NCBI GenBank assembly: GCA_046482545.1
Contig: JAWOEX010000021.1
Span: forward strand, 160,001-224,000
Source of the DNA: Candidatus Thorarchaeota archaeon
GTDB taxonomy: Archaea; Asgardarchaeota; Thorarchaeia; Thorarchaeales; Thorarchaeaceae
DNA length: 64,000 nucleotides
Direction: 5' to 3'
In this document: piece by piece, positions 9,181-22,297 of the stretch
Position numbering within the stretch: position 1 is the first letter of the stretch
Layout: each line of letters begins with the position of its first letter
Program-made: the position numbers and the translations under genes
Notes under the pieces: model-generated
Told to the model about the DNA's origin: nothing
The model's database searches: none
What the model saw: the letters and a program-made list of their open reading frames with translations, nothing else

Positions 9181-11097
9181 GTGACTGAGATGAAGGGCAA
9201 GAGCTCAAACCCATGGGAATCAGCACTTGATACAGTTATTGAAATTATCACCAGAGTTACCGGTTTACCGGCTAGTGAAGTGAGAAGATCGATAGAGATA
9301 CCTCCTAATCCAAAAATGGGTGATTTGGCTTCTACGGTCGCGTTTGTTCTTGCCAAGAAAGAACACAAAAATCCCGCTGAGATAGTCACCGACCTAGGTG
9401 AAAAGATAGAACAAGAAATCGCTCAAGAGTCTTTGATTGAACGAGTTGAGACAACTGGACCGTATGCGAATTTCTTCTTTGATAACAGCAAGTTCGCAGC
9501 ATTAACAATGGAGGAAGTTCAAGAAGCAGACACCCAGTATGGTATGTCCGACAAGTATTTGGGACAGCGAGCCATGATTGAATCTCCAGCTGTGAATCCA
9601 TCCAAGCCCTGGCATATCGGTCACGCTCGCAATGCAGTTCTCGGTGATACGCTTGGCAAAGTGTTGAAGGCAGTAGGATATGATGTAATTCACCTTGATT
9701 ACATCAATGATTTGGGTTTGCAGATAGCGCAGCTCACTTGGAAACTCCAAGAGATGGATGAGATTGAACCGGAAGAGAAGTATGACCATTTCCTAGGCAA
9801 GCTGTATGTGGAAGTTCAGAAAGCGTTTGAAGAGAATGCGGATGTGGAGAGGCAGGTACGGGATATCTCTAAACAGCTAGAAGATAGAGACTCAGAAGCA
9901 TCAAACAATAGTCTGCAAATCGTTCTCCGCTGTACAAAGGCACAAAATAAAACAGCATACAGACTTGGTATTTACAAAGATTACAAGATTCTTGAGAGTA
10001 CCATCGCCCACAGTGGTTTGTTAGATACCGCCAAGGAAATGATGCTGAAAAGCGAGAGTATCATGAAATTGGAGGACGGGGATAAAGCAGGGTGTATTGT
10101 TGCCAAACTCGACACCATTGAAGAGTTCGCAGATATGAAGGATCCATACAAGGTTCTTTTCCGTTCTGATGGCACACGAACATATACGGGTGCGGATGTA
10201 GCTTTCCAGATGTGGAAATTTGGTATTGTTGATGATCCATTCAAGTATGTAACATTGGAAGAACAACCAAATGGGGAGTGTGTATACAGAACATCTTTCG
10301 AAGGCGAAGATAAGGAAATCGGAGATGTGGACTTGGTGTTCAATGTAATTGGGTCCGCACAATCTCATCCCCAGCGGCTCATATACACCATTCTACACCT
10401 CCTCGGCTATGAAAAGGAAGCCAGGAATTCCCATCATGTTGCCTATGAGTTCGTAGGATTGGAAGGTGCTGATTTCTCTGGACGTAAGGGTACATGGATA
10501 GGGTATACTTGTGACGATATCCTTGACAAGACAACAAGTCTTGCACTAGAAGAGGTTGAGAAACGTAACCCTGATGAAACCGATGACTTCAAGCAGGAAG
10601 TTGCTGCACAGGTGGGAACTGGTGCTGTAAGGTACCTCTTGTTGAAAGCTTCCCCCGACAGGAGAATAACTTTTCGCTACGAAGACGCCTTGGACTTCAA
10701 TGGCGATGCGGCACCCTATCTACAGTATTCCCATGCACGGGCCAAGAGAATTCTTGAGAAAGCAAAGCAGGTTAGCACAAATGAAGTGGACTACAGCGGG
10801 CTTACATCTCCTCATGAATTGGCTTTGGTTAAGAAAATCGCCAAATTACCTGACGTGGTGCTCAGCGTAGTAGACGGTATGAAGAAGGAGGTGTGGGGAA
10901 CTACCTTTCAGACCAATATGATTGCGACCTATGCCTATGAGTTGGCCAATAGGTTCAGTAAATTCTATGATACGTGTCCGGTTCTCCAAGCGCCTGCAAA
11001 GACCAAAAGTGCGCGACTTATGCTGGTTGCCGCTTTCAAGATAACCATGGCTAATACGCTCAGGCTACTCGGGATACCTGTAATCGACAAAATGTAG
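9181..11097 (+). CDS. argS: Arginyl-tRNA synthetase
   Basis: 'NPSKPWHIGHARN' HIGH motif, 'RSDGTRTY', 'FSGRKG', 'PYLQYSHARA', C-terminal DALR-like domain. Confidence 0.95.
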   Translation: MTEMKGKSSNPWESALDTVIEIITRVTGLPASEVRRSIEIPPNPKMGDLASTVAFVLAKKEHKNPAEIVTDLGEKIEQEIAQESLIERVETTGPYANFFFDNSKFAALTMEEVQEADTQYGMSDKYLGQRAMIESPAVNPSKPWHIGHARNAVLGDTLGKVLKAVGYDVIHLDYINDLGLQIAQLTWKLQEMDEIEPEEKYDHFLGKLYVEVQKAFEENADVERQVRDISKQLEDRDSEASNNSLQIVLRCTKAQNKTAYRLGIYKDYKILESTIAHSGLLDTAKEMMLKSESIMKLEDGDKAGCIVAKLDTIEEFADMKDPYKVLFRSDGTRTYTGADVAFQMWKFGIVDDPFKYVTLEEQPNGECVYRTSFEGEDKEIGDVDLVFNVIGSAQSHPQRLIYTILHLLGYEKEARNSHHVAYEFVGLEGADFSGRKGTWIGYTCDDILDKTTSLALEEVEKRNPDETDDFKQEVAAQVGTGAVRYLLLKASPDRRITFRYEDALDFNGDAAPYLQYSHARAKRILEKAKQVSTNEVDYSGLTSPHELALVKKIAKLPDVVLSVVDGMKKEVWGTTFQTNMIATYAYELANRFSKFYDTCPVLQAPAKTKSARLMLVAAFKITMANTLRLLGIPVIDKM

Positions 11098-12447
11098 TCA
11101 ACCAGAAGTGATTCGCACGTTATCTATGACAATTGATGGCGAGACCACAGACATTGTAGTTCTCACATCCTCGCCAACGTTACTTACCCGTGAAAGCAAA
11201 TCGCGCATGTTAATTCCAATAAGGGTGTTCTTGACGGGGTGTTTAATCTCGCCCTGCTCCACATAGAAGCCTTCCATAATCATCGCGCTGAGCTCTCCCG
11301 TAGTCATGTTAGGTCGATCTGCAGTATTCCGGCACACAATAGCTCGATCCATTTCTGAAATAAAATCCTTTAGTGAGTGTCTATCAGGCTCAATTATGAA
11401 ATTGGTTGTTGAAATTGATGGCGTTCCTGAGTAAGAGCTCCTAGAAGCGTTTGCAGTATTCTCTACACCCTCCCTACTGGCAGTATACGAATTGTGAAGG
11501 TGACTTTTCAACACACCATCAGATAAAATAACGGTCTTTCGGGATGGTACGCCTTCAGCATCAAATGGGCGACTGCTTATGCCCCTCGGGATTGTCGCAT
11601 CATCAACGATGGAAATCTTTTCGGATGCGATTTGGTTTCCAATATCGTCACTTATGTAGGAACGCCCATCCTGTACTTCTTCCGCGTTCACAGCTCCACC
11701 AAAACCATATCCTATAACCCGTCCAACGGCCAGCGGTGTGAAAATAACAGGCATGTACCCTTCCTCAACCGTCTTTCCTCCCAATCCATCCAAGGCTGAC
11801 TTCCCGGCTGAGGAACCAACCCACTCGGGATTTATGTCATCTAGCGACCGGGATATTTGGTACTCATAGCTGGAATTCTGACCATTCTCAGACCTAACGG
11901 TGGGAGAACTGAACAGAAATGCAGCAGTAGATTCCTCAAAACCAGAGATGCCCAAGGAGTTCACGATTGCCCTCGAGAGAGAAGTTGCTGTAAAAGATGC
12001 CTCAACCGCTGTTCTAAACGGCTCTGTTGCCTCCAGAGAAGCATCAACAGCACGAATCAGATAATCAGCAGCTTCGTCTGGCATCAGCTCCTTGATGGAT
12101 GCATCGAAAACACCTTGGATAGTTGGGTAATCCTTGTCAAGGGCAGGCAGGGTCTCAAAGTCTGAATCGGGTAGTGATGCATGGGCAAGTGCAACAGATT
12201 CTTCGGCTATCTCACGGATATCAGCAGTGTCCAGATTTGTAACATAGGCGAATCCAACCCTCTTTCCAATTACTGATCTGATACCACAACCCATATCGCA
12301 ATCGTGGCTTGCTGCTTTAACAGAATTGTTCTCTACTTCAATCGAAACAGATTTAGAAGATGCCGTGTAGGCTTCGGCTTGATCAGCACCAAGCTTCTCA
12401 GCCAAGCTAACTGTGTCTTCAGCAATACGCACTAAATCTTCCTTCAG
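11098..12447 (-). CDS. tldE: TldE/PmbA family protein
   Basis: 'PFDAEGVP', 'NTANASR', 'EGFYVEQGEI'; no HEXXXH; directly downstream of tldD; probable CTG start after GGAGG (ORF open to 12534). Confidence 0.85.
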   Translation of the reverse strand: MKEDLVRIAEDTVSLAEKLGADQAEAYTASSKSVSIEVENNSVKAASHDCDMGCGIRSVIGKRVGFAYVTNLDTADIREIAEESVALAHASLPDSDFETLPALDKDYPTIQGVFDASIKELMPDEAADYLIRAVDASLEATEPFRTAVEASFTATSLSRAIVNSLGISGFEESTAAFLFSSPTVRSENGQNSSYEYQISRSLDDINPEWVGSSAGKSALDGLGGKTVEEGYMPVIFTPLAVGRVIGYGFGGAVNAEEVQDGRSYISDDIGNQIASEKISIVDDATIPRGISSRPFDAEGVPSRKTVILSDGVLKSHLHNSYTASREGVENTANASRSSYSGTPSISTTNFIIEPDRHSLKDFISEMDRAIVCRNTADRPNMTTGELSAMIMEGFYVEQGEIKHPVKNTLIGINMRDLLSRVSNVGEDVRTTMSVVSPSIVIDNVRITSG

Positions 12448-12449
12448 CT

Positions 12450-13835
12450 TTACATCCCTCCCACGGGTACTTTCCTTATTCGAGCATGTGGACCACCACT
12501 CATATCTGGCACCTTCTGCCCCGACTTCCCGCATGTCCCAGAATCCATTCTGAAATCATCACCAATAGCATCTATCTTGGGCAGAATATCGAGAATCTGT
12601 CCAGCGATGGATACATCGCGGACCATATCGCCAATTTCGCCATTTGTTATCTCGAATCCATGACTTGCCTGAAACATGAATTGTCCTTTAGCCGGGCTGG
12701 TGTATCCGTAATTGAAGCTGCACAGAAGAAGTCCTGTATCTGTATCCTCAACCATTTCATCAACGTTCCAATCTCCAGACTCCATGAAAGTATTGCTCAT
12801 TCGTGGCATCGGCGAGTACATGAACGACTGAGCCCGTGCAGCCCCATTTGGTGTCTTATCAAGTCGGGATGCAGTCTCCAAACTGTGGAGAAGCTCAGTC
12901 AGAAAACCGTCTTTGACAAGCGAGCGGCGGGTCGCTTTTGTCCCCTCCCAATCATAATCAAACGAGCCACGCATACCTGGCAATGTAGGATCATCAACTA
13001 TGTTTAGATTCTCAGGACCAACACGGTCACCTAATTTACCTTCCAATACTGTAGTATGCGCTGGCCAATTGTCAGCCTCACAAGCATGCCCAAAGGCTTC
13101 ATGAATCATGACCCCATTGAGAATAGGATCAAGAATGACATCATACACACCACCCTGAACAGCCGTCGATCTCAACATTTCCACGGCGAGCTCGGCGGTT
13201 TTGGTCCCGATGGTTTGAGGATATTCGTTCTCCAATTCCTCAAAGCCGCCACGACCACCATACGACTTGAAAGCGGTCCGCCGATCACCGTTCTCTTTTG
13301 CGGTCACAGAGGATATAACCCGAGGGAGGCTATTACCGAACGTAACACTGGTACCAAATGAATTTGCAACATGTAGGACACAATTGAAGTCACCATATAC
13401 TGCTCGTGAATTCACGATACGTTCATCATAATCATGAGCTTGTTTATCGATCCGTCTAGCAAGATCCACCTTTTCCGCGATAGGAGTTTCCCGGATATCT
13501 TTGGTGACTTTCATTATACACCTGTCTTGGTAGGTTGGACCATCAAGCTCAAACTTCTCAGATGCACGTTCTTCGATTGCTAGGGCCAGTTCAGCGACAC
13601 TTTTGCCACGCTCGCGCATAGTATTCGCCGTCATTCTGTTTTCCTGACCAAAAGCCCAAGCACCGTTCTTGAATGCCCTAATGCCAGCTCCACGGTTTCG
13701 TGATGTTGCAGATTTCTTTGTTACCCCATTGCTTATTTCAATAGTAGTTAGATGTGAGTCTTCTACTCTCACATCGGCAAAATCGGCTCCCACCTCGAGA
13801 GCAGCCTCAATAGCTTCGCGGGCCAAGTGCTCCAT
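12450..13835 (-). CDS. tldD: TldD family metalloprotease
   Basis: 'IHEAFGHACEAD', 'YDWEG', 'PRMSNT', 'GTCGKSGQKVP'. Confidence 0.9.
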   Translation of the reverse strand: MEHLAREAIEAALEVGADFADVRVEDSHLTTIEISNGVTKKSATSRNRGAGIRAFKNGAWAFGQENRMTANTMRERGKSVAELALAIEERASEKFELDGPTYQDRCIMKVTKDIRETPIAEKVDLARRIDKQAHDYDERIVNSRAVYGDFNCVLHVANSFGTSVTFGNSLPRVISSVTAKENGDRRTAFKSYGGRGGFEELENEYPQTIGTKTAELAVEMLRSTAVQGGVYDVILDPILNGVMIHEAFGHACEADNWPAHTTVLEGKLGDRVGPENLNIVDDPTLPGMRGSFDYDWEGTKATRRSLVKDGFLTELLHSLETASRLDKTPNGAARAQSFMYSPMPRMSNTFMESGDWNVDEMVEDTDTGLLLCSFNYGYTSPAKGQFMFQASHGFEITNGEIGDMVRDVSIAGQILDILPKIDAIGDDFRMDSGTCGKSGQKVPDMSGGPHARIRKVPVGGM

Positions 13836-13943: not shown

Positions 13944-15539
13944 GTGCCACATGACCATGGAGGCCAGTTATTGAATCAAGAGACACAACCGCCTAGTTGC
14001 GAGAATTGTAGTACTGCAGAAGCCTCTCATATGTGTAAGGATTGTGGAGCGGCCATCTGTGCTGACTGCATTGAGACTGATAGCACAGAATACATTGTAT
14101 GTAGTGAATGCCATCATACAGTCAGTAGCGAGGATTCTGAGGAACAGCCAACTGAATGCCCAGAATGTGACTCTGATAATCTGAGCAAGGGGAGACGAAT
14201 GATTGAACGTTGCCCTCACTGTCACTCCACCCGACTTGTGCTCATTGAGAAACGGAGAGGAGAATTATCCAGGGAAATACGCAAATCAGTCATGACGCTT
14301 CAGTATGGTCACACCAAGCTCCGCGAGTTTGGTAGTAAATTGGACAAAGCCAAGAGAGATCTCGTATCGCTTCGAATGGCAAATTTTCTTCATTACAAGT
14401 GGCTTGAAAGTAAAATCGAACAGATTCACGAGGAAATGCCAGCCATAAAGAGAAGGATTGGAAACAAGGCAGAACTTGTTGCAAAGCAAATAGCAGCAGA
14501 GACCAAAGGACTGATGGTTTCAGAAAGCTGGAGTCCATCCCAGTTTCCCTTTATCGAAGGAGTGAGCAACAGGATTAGGGAGTTGGGAAACGGCTACAAA
14601 CACAGCGTAGATGAAGCATTGGACAAGGCAACAAGCATCTTGAAAGAAGTAAATACACAAATAGATGGTCTCAACTACTACAGAAAAAGATTCAGTAGCT
14701 TCTATGAGAACGCAGATCTTTCGGTCAAGGAATTGCCTGTATGTGCACTTCCCGAGATTAAGCTGGCTGGAAGTGACTTTCTGAAAAATGACAAAGCATG
14801 TGGCACTCTGTACATGACCAACAAACGCTTGGTATTCATCGCAGAAACTGGACATATTCGAAAGAGCATGGAAGTCATTTTCGATTTTCCCCTTGTCTAT
14901 CACACAGGATTCTCGGAAGAGGGACGACTAAGAAAGAGAATGGTAATGAAACTCAAGCAAGGTGATATCAAATTCGAATGTTCAGAACAAACCGAGAAAG
15001 TTCTTCCTGATTATATCCAGATAGCAAAACAATTCGATAGGTATGTACAAACCGACTTGGAACGGGTGCGCAAACTGGAACAACAGAAAACCAATTCTGG
15101 TGAAGTCAGATTAAAAATTGAAAGACTGGTCTACCAGCTGCTCTCCGGGAGGAGAGGTGTACAGCGCAAAGCAGAATTGAAAGATGTAACTCCGAGACAG
15201 CCACGGATTTCTTCTGGTTTTAACACAATTCGAAAGAGCTATGAGGATCGCATGAATCAAGACGATAGCGAAATAACCGATTATAGAGTAGAAGACGATT
15301 TCTTTGGCAGACTGCAAGGACAGTATCATGAATCTCGGAATAGCCGTAGAGAGAACAGGTATCAAACTCCCCCCAGTAACTTCAACGAGAAGATAAGGGA
15401 AACCATCAAAATGTTACGCAATGGACAGATAGTTCCTGAGAATTTCATAAGAAGATACAGGAGTCTTATGCGCGAGTCTTACGAGGATAGACACGGTATC
15501 CAGTCAAGAAGCTCAGATAGAGATTCTTTCAATTGGTAA
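13944..15539 (+). CDS. Zn-finger / coiled-coil / GRAM-PH-like / steadiness-box protein (candidate ESCRT-I Vps23/37-like subunit)
   Basis: Six CxxC pairs at the N-terminus; heptad-rich region; 'GTLYMTNKRLVF' GRAM/GLUE-like motif; C-terminal 'KIRETIKMLRNGQIVPENFIRRYRSLMRESY'; adjacent to ESCRT genes. Confidence 0.6.
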   Translation: MPHDHGGQLLNQETQPPSCENCSTAEASHMCKDCGAAICADCIETDSTEYIVCSECHHTVSSEDSEEQPTECPECDSDNLSKGRRMIERCPHCHSTRLVLIEKRRGELSREIRKSVMTLQYGHTKLREFGSKLDKAKRDLVSLRMANFLHYKWLESKIEQIHEEMPAIKRRIGNKAELVAKQIAAETKGLMVSESWSPSQFPFIEGVSNRIRELGNGYKHSVDEALDKATSILKEVNTQIDGLNYYRKRFSSFYENADLSVKELPVCALPEIKLAGSDFLKNDKACGTLYMTNKRLVFIAETGHIRKSMEVIFDFPLVYHTGFSEEGRLRKRMVMKLKQGDIKFECSEQTEKVLPDYIQIAKQFDRYVQTDLERVRKLEQQKTNSGEVRLKIERLVYQLLSGRRGVQRKAELKDVTPRQPRISSGFNTIRKSYEDRMNQDDSEITDYRVEDDFFGRLQGQYHESRNSRRENRYQTPPSNFNEKIRETIKMLRNGQIVPENFIRRYRSLMRESYEDRHGIQSRSSDRDSFNW

Positions 15540-15540
15540 A

Positions 15541-16167
15541 TCATATACCGAGCTCGTTCTCTAGACTTTGAATAGCTCGCTCCAGCTTATCGATTTCGGT
15601 TACCTCTCTGGTAGCAGTCCTTGTCTCCTCCATTCCTGCTGCACGATCTATTTCTTCGAACGCAGCTGTTAATTCATCCGAGCTTTCAGAACCGTCCACT
15701 GAATATCCGAGAGCATCCTCAGAAATCTGGGTTTCAATCTCGTATTCCTCGATACGTCTGGAAATCTCGTCGGTATGTTCTATGACCTCCGATACATCAG
15801 ATTCTTCACCAAGAATTTCAAGAACCTTCGATACGTCAGCCAGAGCATGATTTGCCTTTGCGTTGGTCTGTGCTCTAGTTAGATGAGCGAGTAGACGAAG
15901 CATTTGAAGGCGTGACTTCTCTACCGAAAGAACATATTTTCGAAATCGAACCATTTCTTTTGTATATGTTCGATACGCTTGTGTCCTCCCTTCTTTACGT
16001 GCCGTGATAGCTCTAGATTTGGTTTTTCGTTCCTCTATTTCTAGTTTATTCCGTTGACGCTCAAGTTGCTTGGCCATCACCCTAAGATCGCTTTTCACTT
16101 CAGCGATATTCGGCTTGTGTCGTCCCCAAGATAGCGCCTTCCTCACGGAATCGAGAACTCTAACCAT
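15541..16167 (-). CDS. ESCRT-III Snf7-family protein, Vps2/24/46 (CHMP1-3) class
   Basis: Basic N-terminal helical hairpin 'LRVMAKQLERQRNKLEIEERKTKSRAITARKEG', acidic C half, MIM1-like tail 'DKLERAIQSLE'; ATG 16167 with GTGAT RBS. Confidence 0.85.
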   Translation of the reverse strand: MVRVLDSVRKALSWGRHKPNIAEVKSDLRVMAKQLERQRNKLEIEERKTKSRAITARKEGRTQAYRTYTKEMVRFRKYVLSVEKSRLQMLRLLAHLTRAQTNAKANHALADVSKVLEILGEESDVSEVIEHTDEISRRIEEYEIETQISEDALGYSVDGSESSDELTAAFEEIDRAAGMEETRTATREVTEIDKLERAIQSLENELGI

Positions 16168-16318
16168 GGCTATCACAGGAGTTTCCATTATACCATTTTT
16201 AACACCATGTAACACGCACCTTGTCAAGAATAGAAATCGAAAGCCCATTCTCCCATTGGATTCCTAAGGTCATACATGGTTTAAAGAATGGTCTGGACCA
16301 TTCTCCAGTTGAGTTCCT

Positions 16319-17545
16319 ATGCCAAATGATGCAAGTACCATAGATGAAGGCCTCAAGCAGTTACTTGAGACCGCGGTGGATCTAGATTCCAAGGGTATGC
16401 TCAAGGAAGCAAGTGAATACTACCTGAGCGGCAGCAAGGTCCTCCTCAAACTTGCAAAAGGATCTTCTCTTCCTAGCATTCGTAAACATTACTATGAACG
16501 GGCTCAGGAATGTGTACAAAGGGTTCGAGAAATCTCAGGTATCAATGAGAATTCTAGAAACCAAGATGCAAGAAGCATATCTCATCCCCCAAGAAATACC
16601 AAGGGTGAAGACATAACAAAACCATCGCGTAGATCTGCAGAAGAGGGTGACGAAGAAACGGGAAAGCTACGGGAGATGATAAGGAGAACAATTACAACCA
16701 GAAAGCCCAATGTGGCAATGTCAGATGTTGCAGGGCTTGATGATGTGAAGAATACCATTCATGATGCTGTAGTCACACCAATAAAGCATCCCGAGCTGTT
16801 TAAGGGAAGAGCAAGACAACCATGGAAGGGAATCCTGCTCTATGGGCCTGCAGGATGTGGGAAAACTCTAATAGCTAAAGCAGTGGCAACAGAAGCTGAG
16901 GCCACATTCTTCAACGTATCTGCCGGGAACATGGTAAGCAAGTGGTTGGGCGAATCAGAACGCCTCGTGATGACTCTCTTTGAAATGGCAAGAGAAACTC
17001 AACCGTCGGTCATCTTCCTCGATGAGCTCGATTCCATAGGTGTGTCTCGGAGTGCAAGTGACTTGGGCGGCGAAAGAAGACTCAAGACGCAATTGCTCAC
17101 CGAATTGCAGGGTCTTTCCAACGACATCAATGAAAGAGTGACGCTGATAGGAGCCACAAATCTTCCGTGGGAGATTGATTTTGCCCTTCTATCAAGATTT
17201 GAGAAAAGAATTCATGTTCCGCTTCCTGATAAATCCACAAGAGAACGGATATTCGAAATCCACATGGAAGATATCGATATCACACCTGATGTCAACTATT
17301 CAGAACTAGCAGAATTAGCGAAAGGTTTCAGCGGACGAGATATTAGCGTGGCATGCAGAGAAGCCGCGATGGAACCAATTAGAGAATTGAAGGAACAAGG
17401 CAAGCTCAAAAAGGAGGAGACCATAACTGAAGTTCGTTCTGTAAACAGACGGGACTTCATTGAAGCCCTTCAAACAATAAAGCCCACCTCAAAACAAGAA
17501 CAGATCGAAAAATACTCTTCATGGGCGGAGGACTATAGCCGTTGA
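16319..17545 (+). CDS. vps4: Vps4 AAA+ ATPase with N-terminal MIT domain
   Basis: MIT 'AVDLDSKG...EASEYY...YYERAQE'; 'PWKGILLYGPAGCGKT', 'SKWLGESERLV', 'FLDELD', 'GATNLPWEID', 'RFEKRIHVPLP', 'GFSGRDI...EAAMEPIR'. Confidence 0.92.
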   Translation: MPNDASTIDEGLKQLLETAVDLDSKGMLKEASEYYLSGSKVLLKLAKGSSLPSIRKHYYERAQECVQRVREISGINENSRNQDARSISHPPRNTKGEDITKPSRRSAEEGDEETGKLREMIRRTITTRKPNVAMSDVAGLDDVKNTIHDAVVTPIKHPELFKGRARQPWKGILLYGPAGCGKTLIAKAVATEAEATFFNVSAGNMVSKWLGESERLVMTLFEMARETQPSVIFLDELDSIGVSRSASDLGGERRLKTQLLTELQGLSNDINERVTLIGATNLPWEIDFALLSRFEKRIHVPLPDKSTRERIFEIHMEDIDITPDVNYSELAELAKGFSGRDISVACREAAMEPIRELKEQGKLKKEETITEVRSVNRRDFIEALQTIKPTSKQEQIEKYSSWAEDYSR

Positions 17546-18240
17546 CTGTCAGAGAGAAGGCAAGGAAGAAAGAAGAAAAGGAAATTGAGGATAATACAAC
17601 CGTAGAAAAGGAACATGAAACTGCCACCTCATCACCGCTTTCAGATAATGAAACACAGATAAAACAAGTAGGAGCCCAAGAGTCTATAGATCGTGAGAAA
17701 GCTGAAACCAAAGTTGGTCAAAAGAGTCAGTCTTTGGAAACATTGATACCCGATTGGGGAACTTCCGAAAAAGCTGCCTGGATGTATTTACTACCTACAA
17801 CAGAAGAGGGGGTTAAAAGGTGGGCAAAGGACTGGACCGATTTCCTGATAGAGTGGGCAGACTATAACAATCGATATGTTTTCTCATTTTCAACGTTTAT
17901 CAGAGAGCCTCCCTTCTGTGAAATGCGCAACAAAAGGAAAGCTTTCTCCGAGATAGCTGAATCATTAATTCAACAAGGATTGGCTGAGTGGAGAGATGAT
18001 AGAAAGAGAAACCTTCAGCTGATGTGGAAGTCAAAGAAAGAGGTAGCAGATGATTTGTATGCGTGGGCTCTGAAGACGGGAACCATGCATCTTGACCTCA
18101 GGAGCATGGTGATAGAAGATAGCTTCGACTTTGGTGGATTGCCGCAAGAAGATATCAAAGAGATTTTTGATATAATTGTCCTGAGCGGAAGAGCTGAATG
18201 GGTAGATAAAGAGCGTGCCATGATTAAATTGAATACCTAA
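17542..18240 (+). CDS. vps25: ESCRT-II Vps25-like protein
   Basis: 'WTDFLIEWA', 'GLAEWRDDRKRNLQLMWKSKKEVADDLYAWALKTG' parallels the eukaryotic Vps25 'G.LEW.DK....LIMWR....W...IY.W...G'; 4-nt overlap with vps4. Confidence 0.85.
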   Translation: MTVREKARKKEEKEIEDNTTVEKEHETATSSPLSDNETQIKQVGAQESIDREKAETKVGQKSQSLETLIPDWGTSEKAAWMYLLPTTEEGVKRWAKDWTDFLIEWADYNNRYVFSFSTFIREPPFCEMRNKRKAFSEIAESLIQQGLAEWRDDRKRNLQLMWKSKKEVADDLYAWALKTGTMHLDLRSMVIEDSFDFGGLPQEDIKEIFDIIVLSGRAEWVDKERAMIKLNT

Positions 18241-19028
18241 CTTGCTTCCTGTGCGCTATCGGATTTTTGGTCGGAGCGTAACCCTGGGAAGTAGTATTTT
18301 CCACCACTGCTGAATCTAATATCTGCCACGGCAATTCCGGCCTCGACTAGACTGCTGAGAACTTGGCGTGCATGGTCTTCTGACCATCGAAGATTCATCA
18401 TGACTTGTTCAATGGTCACATGGCCATTTGCTGCAGCTAGATTAATCACCTCAGCTTGGTCTCCCCGCAGTTCTAGTGGGCGTAGTTCCACCACTTTGAC
18501 TCCACCTCCAAGCGTTCGAATTCCTGGAAGAAGACCATGTTCTGCAACACGGTTTACAGCTTCGATAACGTCGTTGTAGCTTACTGAATTCAGCTCTGGA
18601 ATCCTACGAACAACACGTACAATCAGTTCTGCAAGACCCATTAGACCCTTCGATGCATTTGCGGTAGCTACATCAAGAATAGCCAGGCCAATTTGATCAT
18701 AGTATTCCTCCTCGGTCATACCTCGAGGGGGGCCATTCGAACCGTCCGCGAAGAATTGTAAAAGTTCAGCAGCATCAGGAAATCTGTCTAAGATACGCTC
18801 TTCATATATGAAATCCTGTAAATCTTGGCCTCGACGGCGCATACGATCAATATTGGACTTAACATCAAGCATCAGAGCTTCTGATTCGCGTCGATAGGAT
18901 TTCACCCCAACTACTCCCATGTCATACATCTTCTTTAGCTGGTCCAAGGTAGCTATTGAAGCGTATAATTCTGATTCTACATGGAAATCCATCGGCAAGC
19001 CATCACTATCCGGAGTGTCTAGATGCAT
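18237..19028 (-). CDS. Vps28 N-terminal-like domain fused to a Vps22/36 (EAP30) tandem winged helix
   Basis: N-terminal 'SELYASIATLDQLKKMYDMGVVGVKSYRRESEALM...LQDFIYEERILDRFPDAAELL'; C-terminal 'YYDQIGLAILDV...GLMGLAEL...VSYNDVIEAV...PLELRGDQAEVINLA...GHVT...LRWSEDHARQVLSSLVEAGIAVAD...YYFPGL'. Confidence 0.8.
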   Translation of the reverse strand: MHLDTPDSDGLPMDFHVESELYASIATLDQLKKMYDMGVVGVKSYRRESEALMLDVKSNIDRMRRRGQDLQDFIYEERILDRFPDAAELLQFFADGSNGPPRGMTEEEYYDQIGLAILDVATANASKGLMGLAELIVRVVRRIPELNSVSYNDVIEAVNRVAEHGLLPGIRTLGGGVKVVELRPLELRGDQAEVINLAAANGHVTIEQVMMNLRWSEDHARQVLSSLVEAGIAVADIRFSSGGKYYFPGLRSDQKSDSAQEAS

Positions 19029-19085: not shown

Positions 19086-20420
19086 CTATGGGGTGAGGCG
19101 GTCACGATCTCTGGGTAGCAGAGAGGCTTCTCGAATATTATTTAAATTCAAGAGCTGCATGGTAAGCCGTTCCACTCCGAGTCCCAAACCACCATGCGGC
19201 GGAGCACCATACTTGAAAGGTTCCAAGTAGAACATGAAGTCCTCAGGATTAAATCCCTTTTCTTCGAATTTCTCTACCAATAAATCATAGATATGGATTC
19301 TCTGACCACCTGTCGTGATTTCCATTCCTTTGTACGTGAGGTCGAAGCTTTCGGTTAATCCGGGCTGACTCATGCTAGGCATGGTGTATGCAGGTCGTAG
19401 CTCGGAGGGGTAATGAGTTATGAAAACAAAAGGTGAACCAAATCGCTTGGGGAAAGCTTCCCTCAATATCCCCTCGCTTTCTGGATCCAAATCTTCCCCC
19501 ATGGAAATATCCTTTCCTTCCTCATTGAGGATATCCACGACTTTCTCATACTTTACCCGTGGAAATGGTATGCTAGGAACTTTGAAGTCTATTTGAAATG
19601 CTTCTCTGTTCTCTAGAAATCGCTCACGAGTCTTCGCAAAGGCATAATGAAGCATCCTTTCCTCCAACTCCATGACTTCATCCATATCTCGTATCCACGC
19701 TATCTCAATATCAAAAGATGTGTATTCATTGATATGTCGAATCGTGTTGTGTTTCTCAGCCCTGAATACAGGTCCAATCTCGAAAACCTTTCCAAAGCCG
19801 GCGAGCAGCATGAGTTGCTTGTAGAACTGTGGACTCTGAGCGAGGAATGCAGAACGATCGAAATACTTCACTTCGAAAAGGCTTGCGCCACCTTCGGTTG
19901 CTGAGGCGACTATTTTTGGGGTATGTATTTCCATGAAACCGCTTTTCTCCAGATATTCGCGGCAAAATCTAACAATATCATGCTGTAACCGAAATATCGA
20001 GTTAAGGCGAGGTTTTCTCAAATCAAGTATGCGATGATTAAGACGGGTATCCAAGTCGATGTCTACTTTCCCTTCGACTACATCAATTGGAATCCTTTCG
20101 GACTTGTTGATGATTCGTATTTCATCGGGAATGATTTCTACACCAGTATCAACCTGAGGTGCTTCCACAACTTCCCCCTTGACAGCAATCACATACTCTG
20201 GTTTCAAATCCTCAGATAGCTGGAATACGTCAGCTGGAACTCTCTTCTTCGGCAATGTTACTTGAACGGTGCCTTTCTCATCCCTCAATACCAGAAACTT
20301 GATGCTACCCTTGTCTCGTAGAATGTGCACCCATCCAAAGAGGGTTACTTCCTCTCCTTCGGTTCCAGATTGTATCTCTCTAGAGAAATGGGTCCGTTCC
20401 CAGTCACCAATGCTATCCAA
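19086..20420 (-). CDS. aspS: Aspartyl-tRNA synthetase, archaeal type
   Basis: OB fold 'LFGWVHILRDKGSIKFLVLRD', 'ATEGGA', 'LAQSPQFYKQ', 'FRAEKH', 'GAPPHGGLGLGVERL'; probable TTG start 20420. Confidence 0.95.
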   Translation of the reverse strand: MDSIGDWERTHFSREIQSGTEGEEVTLFGWVHILRDKGSIKFLVLRDEKGTVQVTLPKKRVPADVFQLSEDLKPEYVIAVKGEVVEAPQVDTGVEIIPDEIRIINKSERIPIDVVEGKVDIDLDTRLNHRILDLRKPRLNSIFRLQHDIVRFCREYLEKSGFMEIHTPKIVASATEGGASLFEVKYFDRSAFLAQSPQFYKQLMLLAGFGKVFEIGPVFRAEKHNTIRHINEYTSFDIEIAWIRDMDEVMELEERMLHYAFAKTRERFLENREAFQIDFKVPSIPFPRVKYEKVVDILNEEGKDISMGEDLDPESEGILREAFPKRFGSPFVFITHYPSELRPAYTMPSMSQPGLTESFDLTYKGMEITTGGQRIHIYDLLVEKFEEKGFNPEDFMFYLEPFKYGAPPHGGLGLGVERLTMQLLNLNNIREASLLPRDRDRLTP

Positions 20421-20526
20421 ACCATACTTATTGCACAAGTCATCAAGTCCGCTCAAACTGTACACCAGCCTTTTGTCAGCAAGAAATGTCGGGTGCAGTT
20501 GTGTTATGAGGGTTTTGTTCTTCCAT

Positions 20527-20790
20527 CTACATCGGGGCTGCAAGGAGCTCGTAGACGACTTTCCTTCCGTCATTTGCGTGCTCCTCGTCTGTCACAAGGC
20601 CTAAATCTTTAAGCCTGCTCAGGCCATAGTTGACAGTTCGAGGGGGTAGAAAGCTCTCCTCGATAATAGCCTGACGTGACATGCGCCGTTTGTTCTTTAG
20701 CAGCACATAGAGAAGTTTAGCGGAAGGAGGTAAGTCTAAGAATGAGCGCCTGGCAAACGCGATCCCACCTGATTGCTGTTGCCATGTCAC
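20527..20790 (-). CDS. Small MarR-like winged-helix regulator
   Basis: 'DLPPSAKLLYVLL...IIEESFLPPRTVNYGLSRLKDLGLV...DGRKVVY'; GTG start with GGAGGT RBS. Confidence 0.8.
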   Translation of the reverse strand: MTWQQQSGGIAFARRSFLDLPPSAKLLYVLLKNKRRMSRQAIIEESFLPPRTVNYGLSRLKDLGLVTDEEHANDGRKVVYELLAAPM

Positions 20791-20950: not shown

Positions 20951-22297
20951 TCAATTCCTCTTCAACACCACGAGGCTTTCTCTTGAGCTCCTGTTATCTT
21001 TCATGTTCGTAGCAGGATTTACACCATATGAAAACATCCGCCTAGAGACTATGGTGTCAACAAGGGTCCCTTTATGCACCCAGCCGAGCTCCGTGAAGTG
21101 CTCAGTTAATATTTCATCAATTGGAACTGGTCGGCCTCGCATACTGGGCCGACCCACAAAGAAGAAGAGAAATGAATTGATGTCCTCGGACAGCCTTTGA
21201 AGAGCCATGGTCACTCCACGGAAATAGTTATCGTATACATCTTGAATATGGTCCTCTTGTACGCCCCTCCTCATACGTTTGTAGGTTTCAGAGTAGATGT
21301 CAGTTTCTGAAATGTCTCGGTAGGGAATCTCCTTTCTACTCAGGGTTCTCACATCTTCGTCTGAATAACCCAACCAGAATAGATCCATTTTGGCCTGCCG
21401 CATATATTCCTGAGATTGCATATAGGGTGGCGAGGTAACAAGAATATCTTTGCTCTGACCAAGATCGTAATTCAAGGAATCAATTCCAGCATGAATAATT
21501 GAATCCACTTCCCGAGGATTGAAGGTATGATATTCCTCTTGCCGCTCAAGCAAATCGGTTGTCTCTTTCTTGAGCATTGAATAGAAAAGTGCCTTCCAGT
21601 TCTTTTTCAAAATGTTTTCAACTCGCTCTTCCGACTTCGGGGACTTAGACAGCTTCATTCGGCCCATATCATCATAAGAAAAATATCTACTCACTTTCAG
21701 CAGGGGAACAGCAAGTAATTCTTTCTTGTTAGTATCGTTGATCTCATGATAGGAACCCCATACATGTTTCAGGAATTCCTTGAAAGGTTCTGCAAACCAG
21801 TAATCAAAGTTAGCCCATTCCGGATGATAGCAGGTCTCATGAACGGACAGACGATTAATCAAGTCATCAACATTATAGGATTGTGGCGGTGCAATGGCGA
21901 CTCTGTGTAGTAAATCTAGGATTGGATTCAAATCCCACAGCTCATATTCAAGACCATACAGACGCGACACGAGTCCCGTGGTCCCACATCCCGCAAATGG
22001 GTCAAAGACAGTCATATCGTCTTCTGCGTACCTTTCCAAAACGTACACAGGAACTTGCGGAATGAATTTTGCGGGGTACTTGTAAATGCCAAAAGTGGCA
22101 TAGCTAGTTGAAGGAAAATCGACCATCTCTCTGAGGGATACTTCTAGTACTTCTCCAGTTTCTGTATCGTCTTCGAGAAACTCCGTCACAAATCGCGGTC
22201 CAGCAGCTGTCGTAGAGTTATCGGCCCCGCTATCATTGTCCTTCGAATGCTCTATAGCTGGACGCTCTTCCATCTCGTCTGGCATCTCTTTTTTCAA
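20951..22297 (-). CDS. DNA amino-methyltransferase, probably N4-cytosine, alpha motif order
   Basis: 'YKYPAKFIPQ', motif I 'DPFAGCGTT' preceding motif IV 'VTSPPY'. Confidence 0.8.
   Translation of the reverse strand: MKKEMPDEMEERPAIEHSKDNDSGADNSTTAAGPRFVTEFLEDDTETGEVLEVSLREMVDFPSTSYATFGIYKYPAKFIPQVPVYVLERYAEDDMTVFDPFAGCGTTGLVSRLYGLEYELWDLNPILDLLHRVAIAPPQSYNVDDLINRLSVHETCYHPEWANFDYWFAEPFKEFLKHVWGSYHEINDTNKKELLAVPLLKVSRYFSYDDMGRMKLSKSPKSEERVENILKKNWKALFYSMLKKETTDLLERQEEYHTFNPREVDSIIHAGIDSLNYDLGQSKDILVTSPPYMQSQEYMRQAKMDLFWLGYSDEDVRTLSRKEIPYRDISETDIYSETYKRMRRGVQEDHIQDVYDNYFRGVTMALQRLSEDINSFLFFFVGRPSMRGRPVPIDEILTEHFTELGWVHKGTLVDTIVSRRMFSYGVNPATNMKDNRSSRESLVVLKRN

Follow-up and report, generated by a model that had tools for sequence, protein, structure and literature searches.

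A single gene of a Candidatus Thorarchaeota archaeon encodes the N-terminal headpiece of the ESCRT-I subunit Vps28 joined through a short linker to the tandem winged helices (wH) of the ESCRT-II subunit Vps22. The gene lies in the 64,000-nucleotide stretch of DNA analysed here (the window; contig JAWOEX010000021.1, positions 160,001 to 224,000). The fusion is real, conserved and already in the literature (2024), and it has the appearance of a lineage-specific shortcut, not an ancestral link that connected ESCRT-I with ESCRT-II. Added here are the loss of the Vps22 helical domain, the unfused state of Vps22 in 21 other Asgard families sampled, with the fusion most likely a derived deletion, the repeated occurrence of such fusions and a model of steadiness-box (SB) binding.

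The fusion was read from a single open frame of 263 aa (Table 1), in which the GSNGPPRG linker and the other motifs quoted in an earlier note on this DNA were found as described. Most homologues begin at M13 (base 18992), which is probably the true start. In the AlphaFold model (mean pLDDT 79.6), residues 13-90 formed a confident hairpin with short helices and residues 93-98 a linker of low confidence, followed by two winged helices. Missing at the linker are the Vps28 C-terminal domain (Vps28-C) and the Vps22 N-terminal helical domain.

Table 1. Features of the fusion gene and its locus, with the fusion genes of two other lineages. Positions are those of the window unless another record is named.
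Feature	Position	Strand	Remarks
Znr-CC-PH-SB protein	13944..15539	+	orthologue of ThorAB25_08990 'SB'; architecture of asCOG cog.011556
Steadiness-box hairpin, ~aa 478-517 of Znr-CC-PH-SB	15375..15494	+	Vps23_core E 0.25, weak; predicted Vps28-N docking site
ESCRT-III, Snf7 family	15541..16248	-	orthologue of ThorAB25_09000 'ESCRT3A'
Vps4 MIT-AAA ATPase	16319..17545	+	
Vps25 (ESCRT-II)	17542..18240	+	PF05871 E 3e-10; convergent with fusion gene, overlapping stop codons
Vps28N-Vps22(wH) fusion gene	18237..19028	-	263 aa as longest ORF; 251 aa from probable start M13
Vps22/SNF8 tandem winged helices, aa 104-250	18279..18719	-	
Linker, aa 93-103	18720..18752	-	variable, low confidence; fusion junction
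Vps28 N-terminal headpiece domain, aa 13-92	18753..18992	-	steadiness-box hairpin H13-36/H42-65 and three short helices
P0129 fusion, 'Ca. Odinarchaeia', GCA_054383955.1	L143:7001-7900		299 aa, linker ~33 aa; two contigs and a JGI relative
P0127 fusion, 'Ca. Ranarchaeia', three MAGs	L140:7001-7948, L141:3136-4083, L142:4388-5335		315 aa, linker ~62 aa

The N-terminal half had been assigned to Vps28 in the earlier note, and the assignment was upheld. The N-domain profile aligned with Asgard Vps28-N (hhalign, profile-profile) at P=99.4 and E 4.6e-21, with 35% identity over 77 columns, and an Asgard Vps28N HMM matched the fusion at E 1.5e-18. The AlphaFold model of aa 5-92 was placed on 6VME, the headpiece of human ESCRT-I (Z 11.7, rmsd 3.2, 86 residues; VIA), and on yeast Vps23C:Vps28N 2F6M (Z 10.3; VIA), Z values that are by themselves only middling because the fold is helical. 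Yeast Vps28-N matched weakly by family profile (E 0.13). Pfam VPS28 (profile 2-60) was aligned with aa 19-75 at E 0.015, below the cut-off, and a single-sequence search of the N-domain against the PDB matched nothing, so that the assignment required Asgard intermediates and structure. Profile-profile comparison of the N-domain with Asgard Vps22-N, Vps23-SB and Vps28-C gave no match; a diverged Vps22 helical domain was ruled out (hhalign P 0.1%), and a Vps23-type SB had no direct profile match (P 0.2%), where Vps28-N fits over 77 columns. Across 46 homologues, a dense run of invariant or near-invariant surface residues was found at aa 20-31. The headpiece fold and sequence are common to the fusion, eukaryotic Vps28 (PF03997; 6VME, 2F6M) and Asgard Vps28, but the latter two carry a C-terminal four-helix bundle, whereas the fusion has no bundle and is joined to Vps22. 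The bundle is absent as the earlier note had it: the Asgard Vps28-C profile found no match in the fusion, and the residues after the linker are winged helix.

In the C-terminal half, human SNF8/VPS22 matched aa 107-257 (E 9e-18), and Pfam EAP30 (PF04157) matched aa 106-236 (E 1.6e-13) with profile positions 85-218 only. The closest matches of the tandem winged helices were SNF8, not VPS36, and this part was placed on Vps22 of 2ZME, 3CUQ and 1U5T (Foldseek, VIA). The winged helices and a C-terminal aromatic-FPGL motif are shared with eukaryotic Vps22/SNF8 (3CUQ_A, 2ZME_A) and with unfused Asgard Vps22. Both of these have an N-terminal helical domain; the fusion does not, and the Asgard Vps22-N profile gave no match in it. 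Also absent before the wH pair were Vps36-type GLUE/PH and NZF domains, the N-domain being all-helical Vps28-N. Of the 'full EAP30 tandem WH' described earlier, the wH pair is therefore present and the full EAP30 is not. Nor was the Vps28 bundle replaced by the ESCRT-II subunit itself in the sense of a full subunit, as the helical domain of Vps22 is gone too. A covalent ESCRT-I/II link holds as an architecture, with both domains in one protein.

An assembly chimera or a frameshift artefact as the source of the fusion can be virtually dismissed. A homologue search found 134 sequences, of which the 120 listed cover at least 85% of the query and are 59-87% identical to it (the query itself aside). 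The fusion is no assembly artefact, because both parts occur in at least 120 homologues of nearly full length, every one of those listed; the named ones are mostly Thorarchaeota, and the homologues come from many independent assemblies with identical junction and gene order. The same gene stands in genome records, among them the 3.16-Mb chromosome record CP070761.1. Independent MAGs, proposed earlier as a check, thus carry the fusion, which is not unique to this assembly.

The cluster contains the steadiness-box gene that had been placed at the other end of the locus. Its product is laid out as Zn ribbons, a coiled coil, a PH/GLUE-like domain and a C-terminal steadiness box, and its C-terminus and the fusion N-domain were the only SB-type hairpins found in this genome. 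Among loci long enough, gene order was kept for Vps25 in 74/74, Vps4 in 68/68, ESCRT-III in 64/65, Znr-CC-PH-SB in 59/60 and aspS in 66/66, counts that come from kin and are not independent events. The ESCRT cluster is flanked by argS-pmbA-tldD (9181-13835) and by aspS (19086-20573), the latter upstream of the fusion. Vps25 carries an N-terminal extension of ~65 aa (17542-17745), which is charged, probably disordered and poorly conserved. The true start of the ESCRT-III gene is probably ~80 nt downstream of its first ATG. In the steadiness box, the first helix (15345-15380) looks shortened relative to homologues, with a Thr-Pro-Pro stretch and a 3-residue gap. A DNA-methyltransferase-like ORF with a TSPPY motif was seen, by eye only, at 20951-22297.

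The fusion profile was searched against 301 Asgard genomes. Among the matches listed, those to the whole profile were all in the order of the window, and elsewhere matches started at position 33 or later; a further 340 weaker matches lay outside these. Vps22 was unfused in 21/21 other Asgard families sampled. A separate, full vps28 was located directly upstream of the unfused vps22, on the same strand, in 14 of the 21, and six of these 14 had a small Vps28C-like gene between the two, the usual Asgard order being vps23, vps28, optional Vps28C-like gene, vps22. The small genes encode ~100 aa each (L034:3840-4124, L035:3789-4079, L037:3870-4163, L043:762-1061, L045:3933-4253 and L054:2296-2601); stand-alone Vps28-C genes are reported in the text of Makarova et al., 2024 (PMC10936438). 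Pfam VPS28 was covered nearly end to end by the three Asgard Vps28s scanned. Four of five unfused Vps22s scanned matched EAP30 profile positions 2-218, and the fifth, Odinarchaeum-like, was matched only by the Asgard profile. The N-termini of unfused Asgard Vps22s form one eukaryote-like helical family and resemble neither SB nor Vps28. In the Thor protein the part up to the linker corresponds to Vps28, and Vps22 sets in shortly ahead of the first winged helix.

The fusion most likely reflects a derived deletion and not a family-wide or ancestral trait. It is read as a derived simplification because Vps28 and Vps22 remain two complete, unjoined proteins in eukaryotes and in the other Asgard families; the direction of change rests on parsimony, since the deep branches of the wH tree lack resolution. 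The same separate, complete proteins speak against the earlier suggestion that the fusion bears on how the eukaryotic complexes became linked. As a Rosetta stone it stands in a weaker sense, as an indication that these archaea use ESCRT-I and -II in a shared pathway, and not as an ancestral link.

Two further proteins with Vps28-N and winged helices, P0129 and P0127 (Table 1), were recovered among the best 150 matches of a search of 1.84 billion representatives. The P0129 gene follows directly downstream of UEV-Vps23, with ubiquitin and RING genes nearby. The P0127 gene adjoins Vps25, Vps4 and Snf7, with a zinc-ribbon/Yip1 gene just upstream, and a Ranarchaeia orthologue of Znr-CC-PH-SB lies ~4.5 kb away (L141:8551-10245; E 2.7e-9 to the Asgard Vps23-SB profile). 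Close relatives of the two were sought in 400 Asgard GTDB genomes; among the matches listed none started before query residue 40, and the best (~50% identity for P0129, ~46% for P0127) covered the wH part only. The wH domains of the Thor fusions formed one supported group (100/98), and that of P0129 grouped with a different Vps22 clade (100/100). The fusion probably had at least two origins, perhaps three, Ranarchaeia being uncertain on a long branch.

A reversed history, in which SB-Vps22 was the ancestral or general Asgard architecture and separate Vps28 and Vps22 arose by splitting, is very unlikely and was regarded as largely refuted. The plain reading of what Makarova et al., 2024 state on cog.002769 favors it, and the Rosetta-stone reading of the earlier note corresponds to it, although in Table S3 of that work the rows of evidence for Vps22 are all on one Thorarchaeota protein and Vps22 is unfused in the 21 other families. 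Fusions do occur in three lineages, but their junctions differ (linkers of ~7-11 aa in Thor, ~33 in P0129 and ~62 in P0127), and in the wH tree the fused state needed 3 changes in 200/200 bootstrap trees, at least two of them forced by well-supported branches. A single clade of fusions was rejected by the wH tree (AU p=0.018) and not by the N-domain tree (AU p=0.165), which points the same way as the wH tree but, with its long branches, is too short for a test of origins. Splitting would in addition require the regain of two eukaryote-homologous domains, Vps28-C and the Vps22 helical domain.

The joint loss of Vps28-C and the Vps22 N-terminal helices in each of these fusions may, tentatively and with somewhat less than even confidence, mark the two as the non-covalent ESCRT-I/II bridge of unfused, Vps36-less Asgard archaea, which would make them the likely ancestral bridge from before Vps36 became specialized. 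A caveat is that any deletion between the retained parts takes out both domains through position alone. Human VPS28-C binds a VPS36 helix just before the VPS36 helical domain, which would fit such a bridge. If true, this would offer a testable answer to how ESCRT-I and -II are bridged in archaea without Vps36, a point left open for Odinarchaeota in the text of Hatano et al., 2022 (PMC9192718).

Beyond the observed domain anatomy, conservation, synteny and lineage restriction, we infer a deletion event and a series of binding steps. The Thorarchaeia form of Vps22 probably arose by in-frame deletion and acts in a chain from the PH-SB protein through the fusion and Vps25 to ESCRT-III and Vps4. 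The deletion would have joined the adjacent, co-oriented vps28 and vps22 of an ancestral Asgard operon in one step, keeping the Vps28 headpiece and the Vps22 wH pair and removing Vps28-C and the Vps22 N-terminal helical domain. Znr-CC-PH-SB, as proposed in Makarova et al., 2024, would serve as a Vps23-like ESCRT-I scaffold held at the membrane by its PH domain. Its steadiness box is predicted to pack on the Vps28-N hairpin of the fusion, giving an ESCRT-I-type headpiece. The attached winged helices would bind Vps25, by analogy with eukaryotic Vps22, and Vps25 would recruit ESCRT-III, which Vps4 would then recycle; for this step, Y2H links of Asgard proteins are reported in the text of Hatano et al., 2022. 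Such a chain would run without ubiquitin, UEV and Vps28-C, which the queries used did not find in this genome. It would give Thorarchaeia a concrete ubiquitin-free assembly route (PH-SB protein, fusion, Vps25, ESCRT-III, Vps4), one open to reconstitution in vitro.

The packing of the steadiness box on the hairpin was modelled as a complex of SB residues 455-531 with fusion residues 10-95. The model had an ipSAE of 0.83 (best of 3 controls, 0.01) and passed a mark that was reached by 58/80 solved complexes and 2/110 mismatched pairs; runs agreed in at least 89% of contacts, with a partner pLDDT of 87. The pass shows likeness and not binding, because similar Vps23-SB/Vps28-N complexes (6VME, 2F6M) were already solved. 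At the modelled interface, invariant A23, A26, T27, E48 and L52 of the fusion meet conserved F501, Y505 and R510 of the SB protein. On this model, the syntenic SB protein is likely the partner of the fusion. A Thor SB-Vps22 interaction is not stated in the text of Hatano et al., 2022.

The hairpin might instead mainly self-associate, replacing the lost dimerization helices of Vps22 and yielding a Vps22 homodimer with a Vps22/Vps36-like stalk, with the SB neighbor not its main partner. Self-interaction of Thor Vps22 in Y2H is reported in the text of Hatano et al., 2022, and Odin Vps28 has a minor transient dimer. Part of the dimer contact of Heimdall Vps22 is made by aa 41-47 of its helical domain, which is missing in Thor, but the wH pair could dimerize through the other Heimdall surface, aa 160-167. 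On the N-domain, the conserved face coincides with the modelled SB interface, and the SB gene keeps its place in the locus. Self-association as the main role was judged unlikely, and the two readings are not mutually exclusive. An N-domain that is a vestigial passenger of the deletion, with no binding role, is highly implausible. It would suit the long branches of the Vps28-N parts and the lack of canonical UEV-Vps23 in Thorarchaeota, but not the invariant or near-invariant surface block at aa 20-31 of 46 homologues, the high pLDDT or the candidate partner conserved in the locus.

The fusion has a clear published precedent. Makarova et al., 2024 (mBio) describe the Znr_PH_CC_SB family and give Asgard Vps22 (cog.002769) as fused to a steadiness box, unlike in eukaryotes; in their Table S3, aa 1-70 of the Thorarchaeota Vps22 KXH75178.1 are the PF03997 VPS28 N-terminal domain (SB), at HHpred 99%. 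An orthologue of the fusion with 66% identity and the same gene order was found in SMTZ1-45. KXH75178.1 appears to be this protein, judging by gene order and because KXH75181 is the ESCRT-III of that genome, three genes away. The fusion is given in the paper for the whole Vps22 family, whereas here no lineages other than Thorarchaeia and two rare ones known from MAGs were found to have it. The family-wide wording appears to rest on the Thor protein, whose rows are the Vps22 evidence in Table S3. In its passages on Vps22, the paper does not describe the loss of the helical domain, an origin by deletion or repeated origins. Hatano et al., 2022 (Nat Commun) used ThorAB25_09030 'Vps22' and ThorAB25_08990 'SB' in Y2H. 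ThorAB25_09030 is the orthologue of the fusion (67% identity) in the same five-gene cluster with Vps25, Vps4, ESCRT-III and the SB gene; it is labelled simply Vps22, the text of that paper makes no mention of a Vps28-N domain, and the Thor set of six proteins described there has no separate Vps28. A UEV-Vps23-Vps28 fusion of Heimdallarchaeia (HeimAB125_14070) also joins neighboring genes of the vps23-vps28-vps22 operon. Unlike the Thor fusion, it combines two subunits of ESCRT-I and still has Vps28-C, and Vps22 stays a protein of its own. With the fusion published, the locus by itself adds little, and for ESCRT evolution the refinements have a modest value: the published generalization that Asgard Vps22 is fused to SB seems to apply to no more than Thorarchaeia and a few rare lineages.

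This genome (98.9% complete) was searched for further components. No ubiquitin, credible E2/UEV, Vps28-C or second Vps22 was found with the queries used; these searches gave a weak match at C10:42114-42629 (E 0.16). Vps28-C had no match at E<=0.01 in 86 genomes of the family of the window. Divergent BAR-Vps28C proteins have been reported in Thorarchaeia and would escape the Vps28-C profile used. The only Vps28-C-like match in the order (L139:1489-2181, E 3.6e-4) came from the C-terminal end of a frame of 231 aa in the sister family f2, which carries the fusion as well. Most Thorarchaeia genomes encode a protein of ~780-800 aa (e.g., L052:2462-4876) with a coiled coil and a carboxypeptidase-regulatory-like domain; its C-terminal end is a largely intact Vps22, helical domain included. 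It was not found in the three genomes of the genus of the window; where present, its intact Vps22 could give Thorarchaeia a second route. The second ESCRT-III gene of this genome (Snf7, E 2e-21) lies outside the window at C20:110881-111372, unlinked to the cluster.
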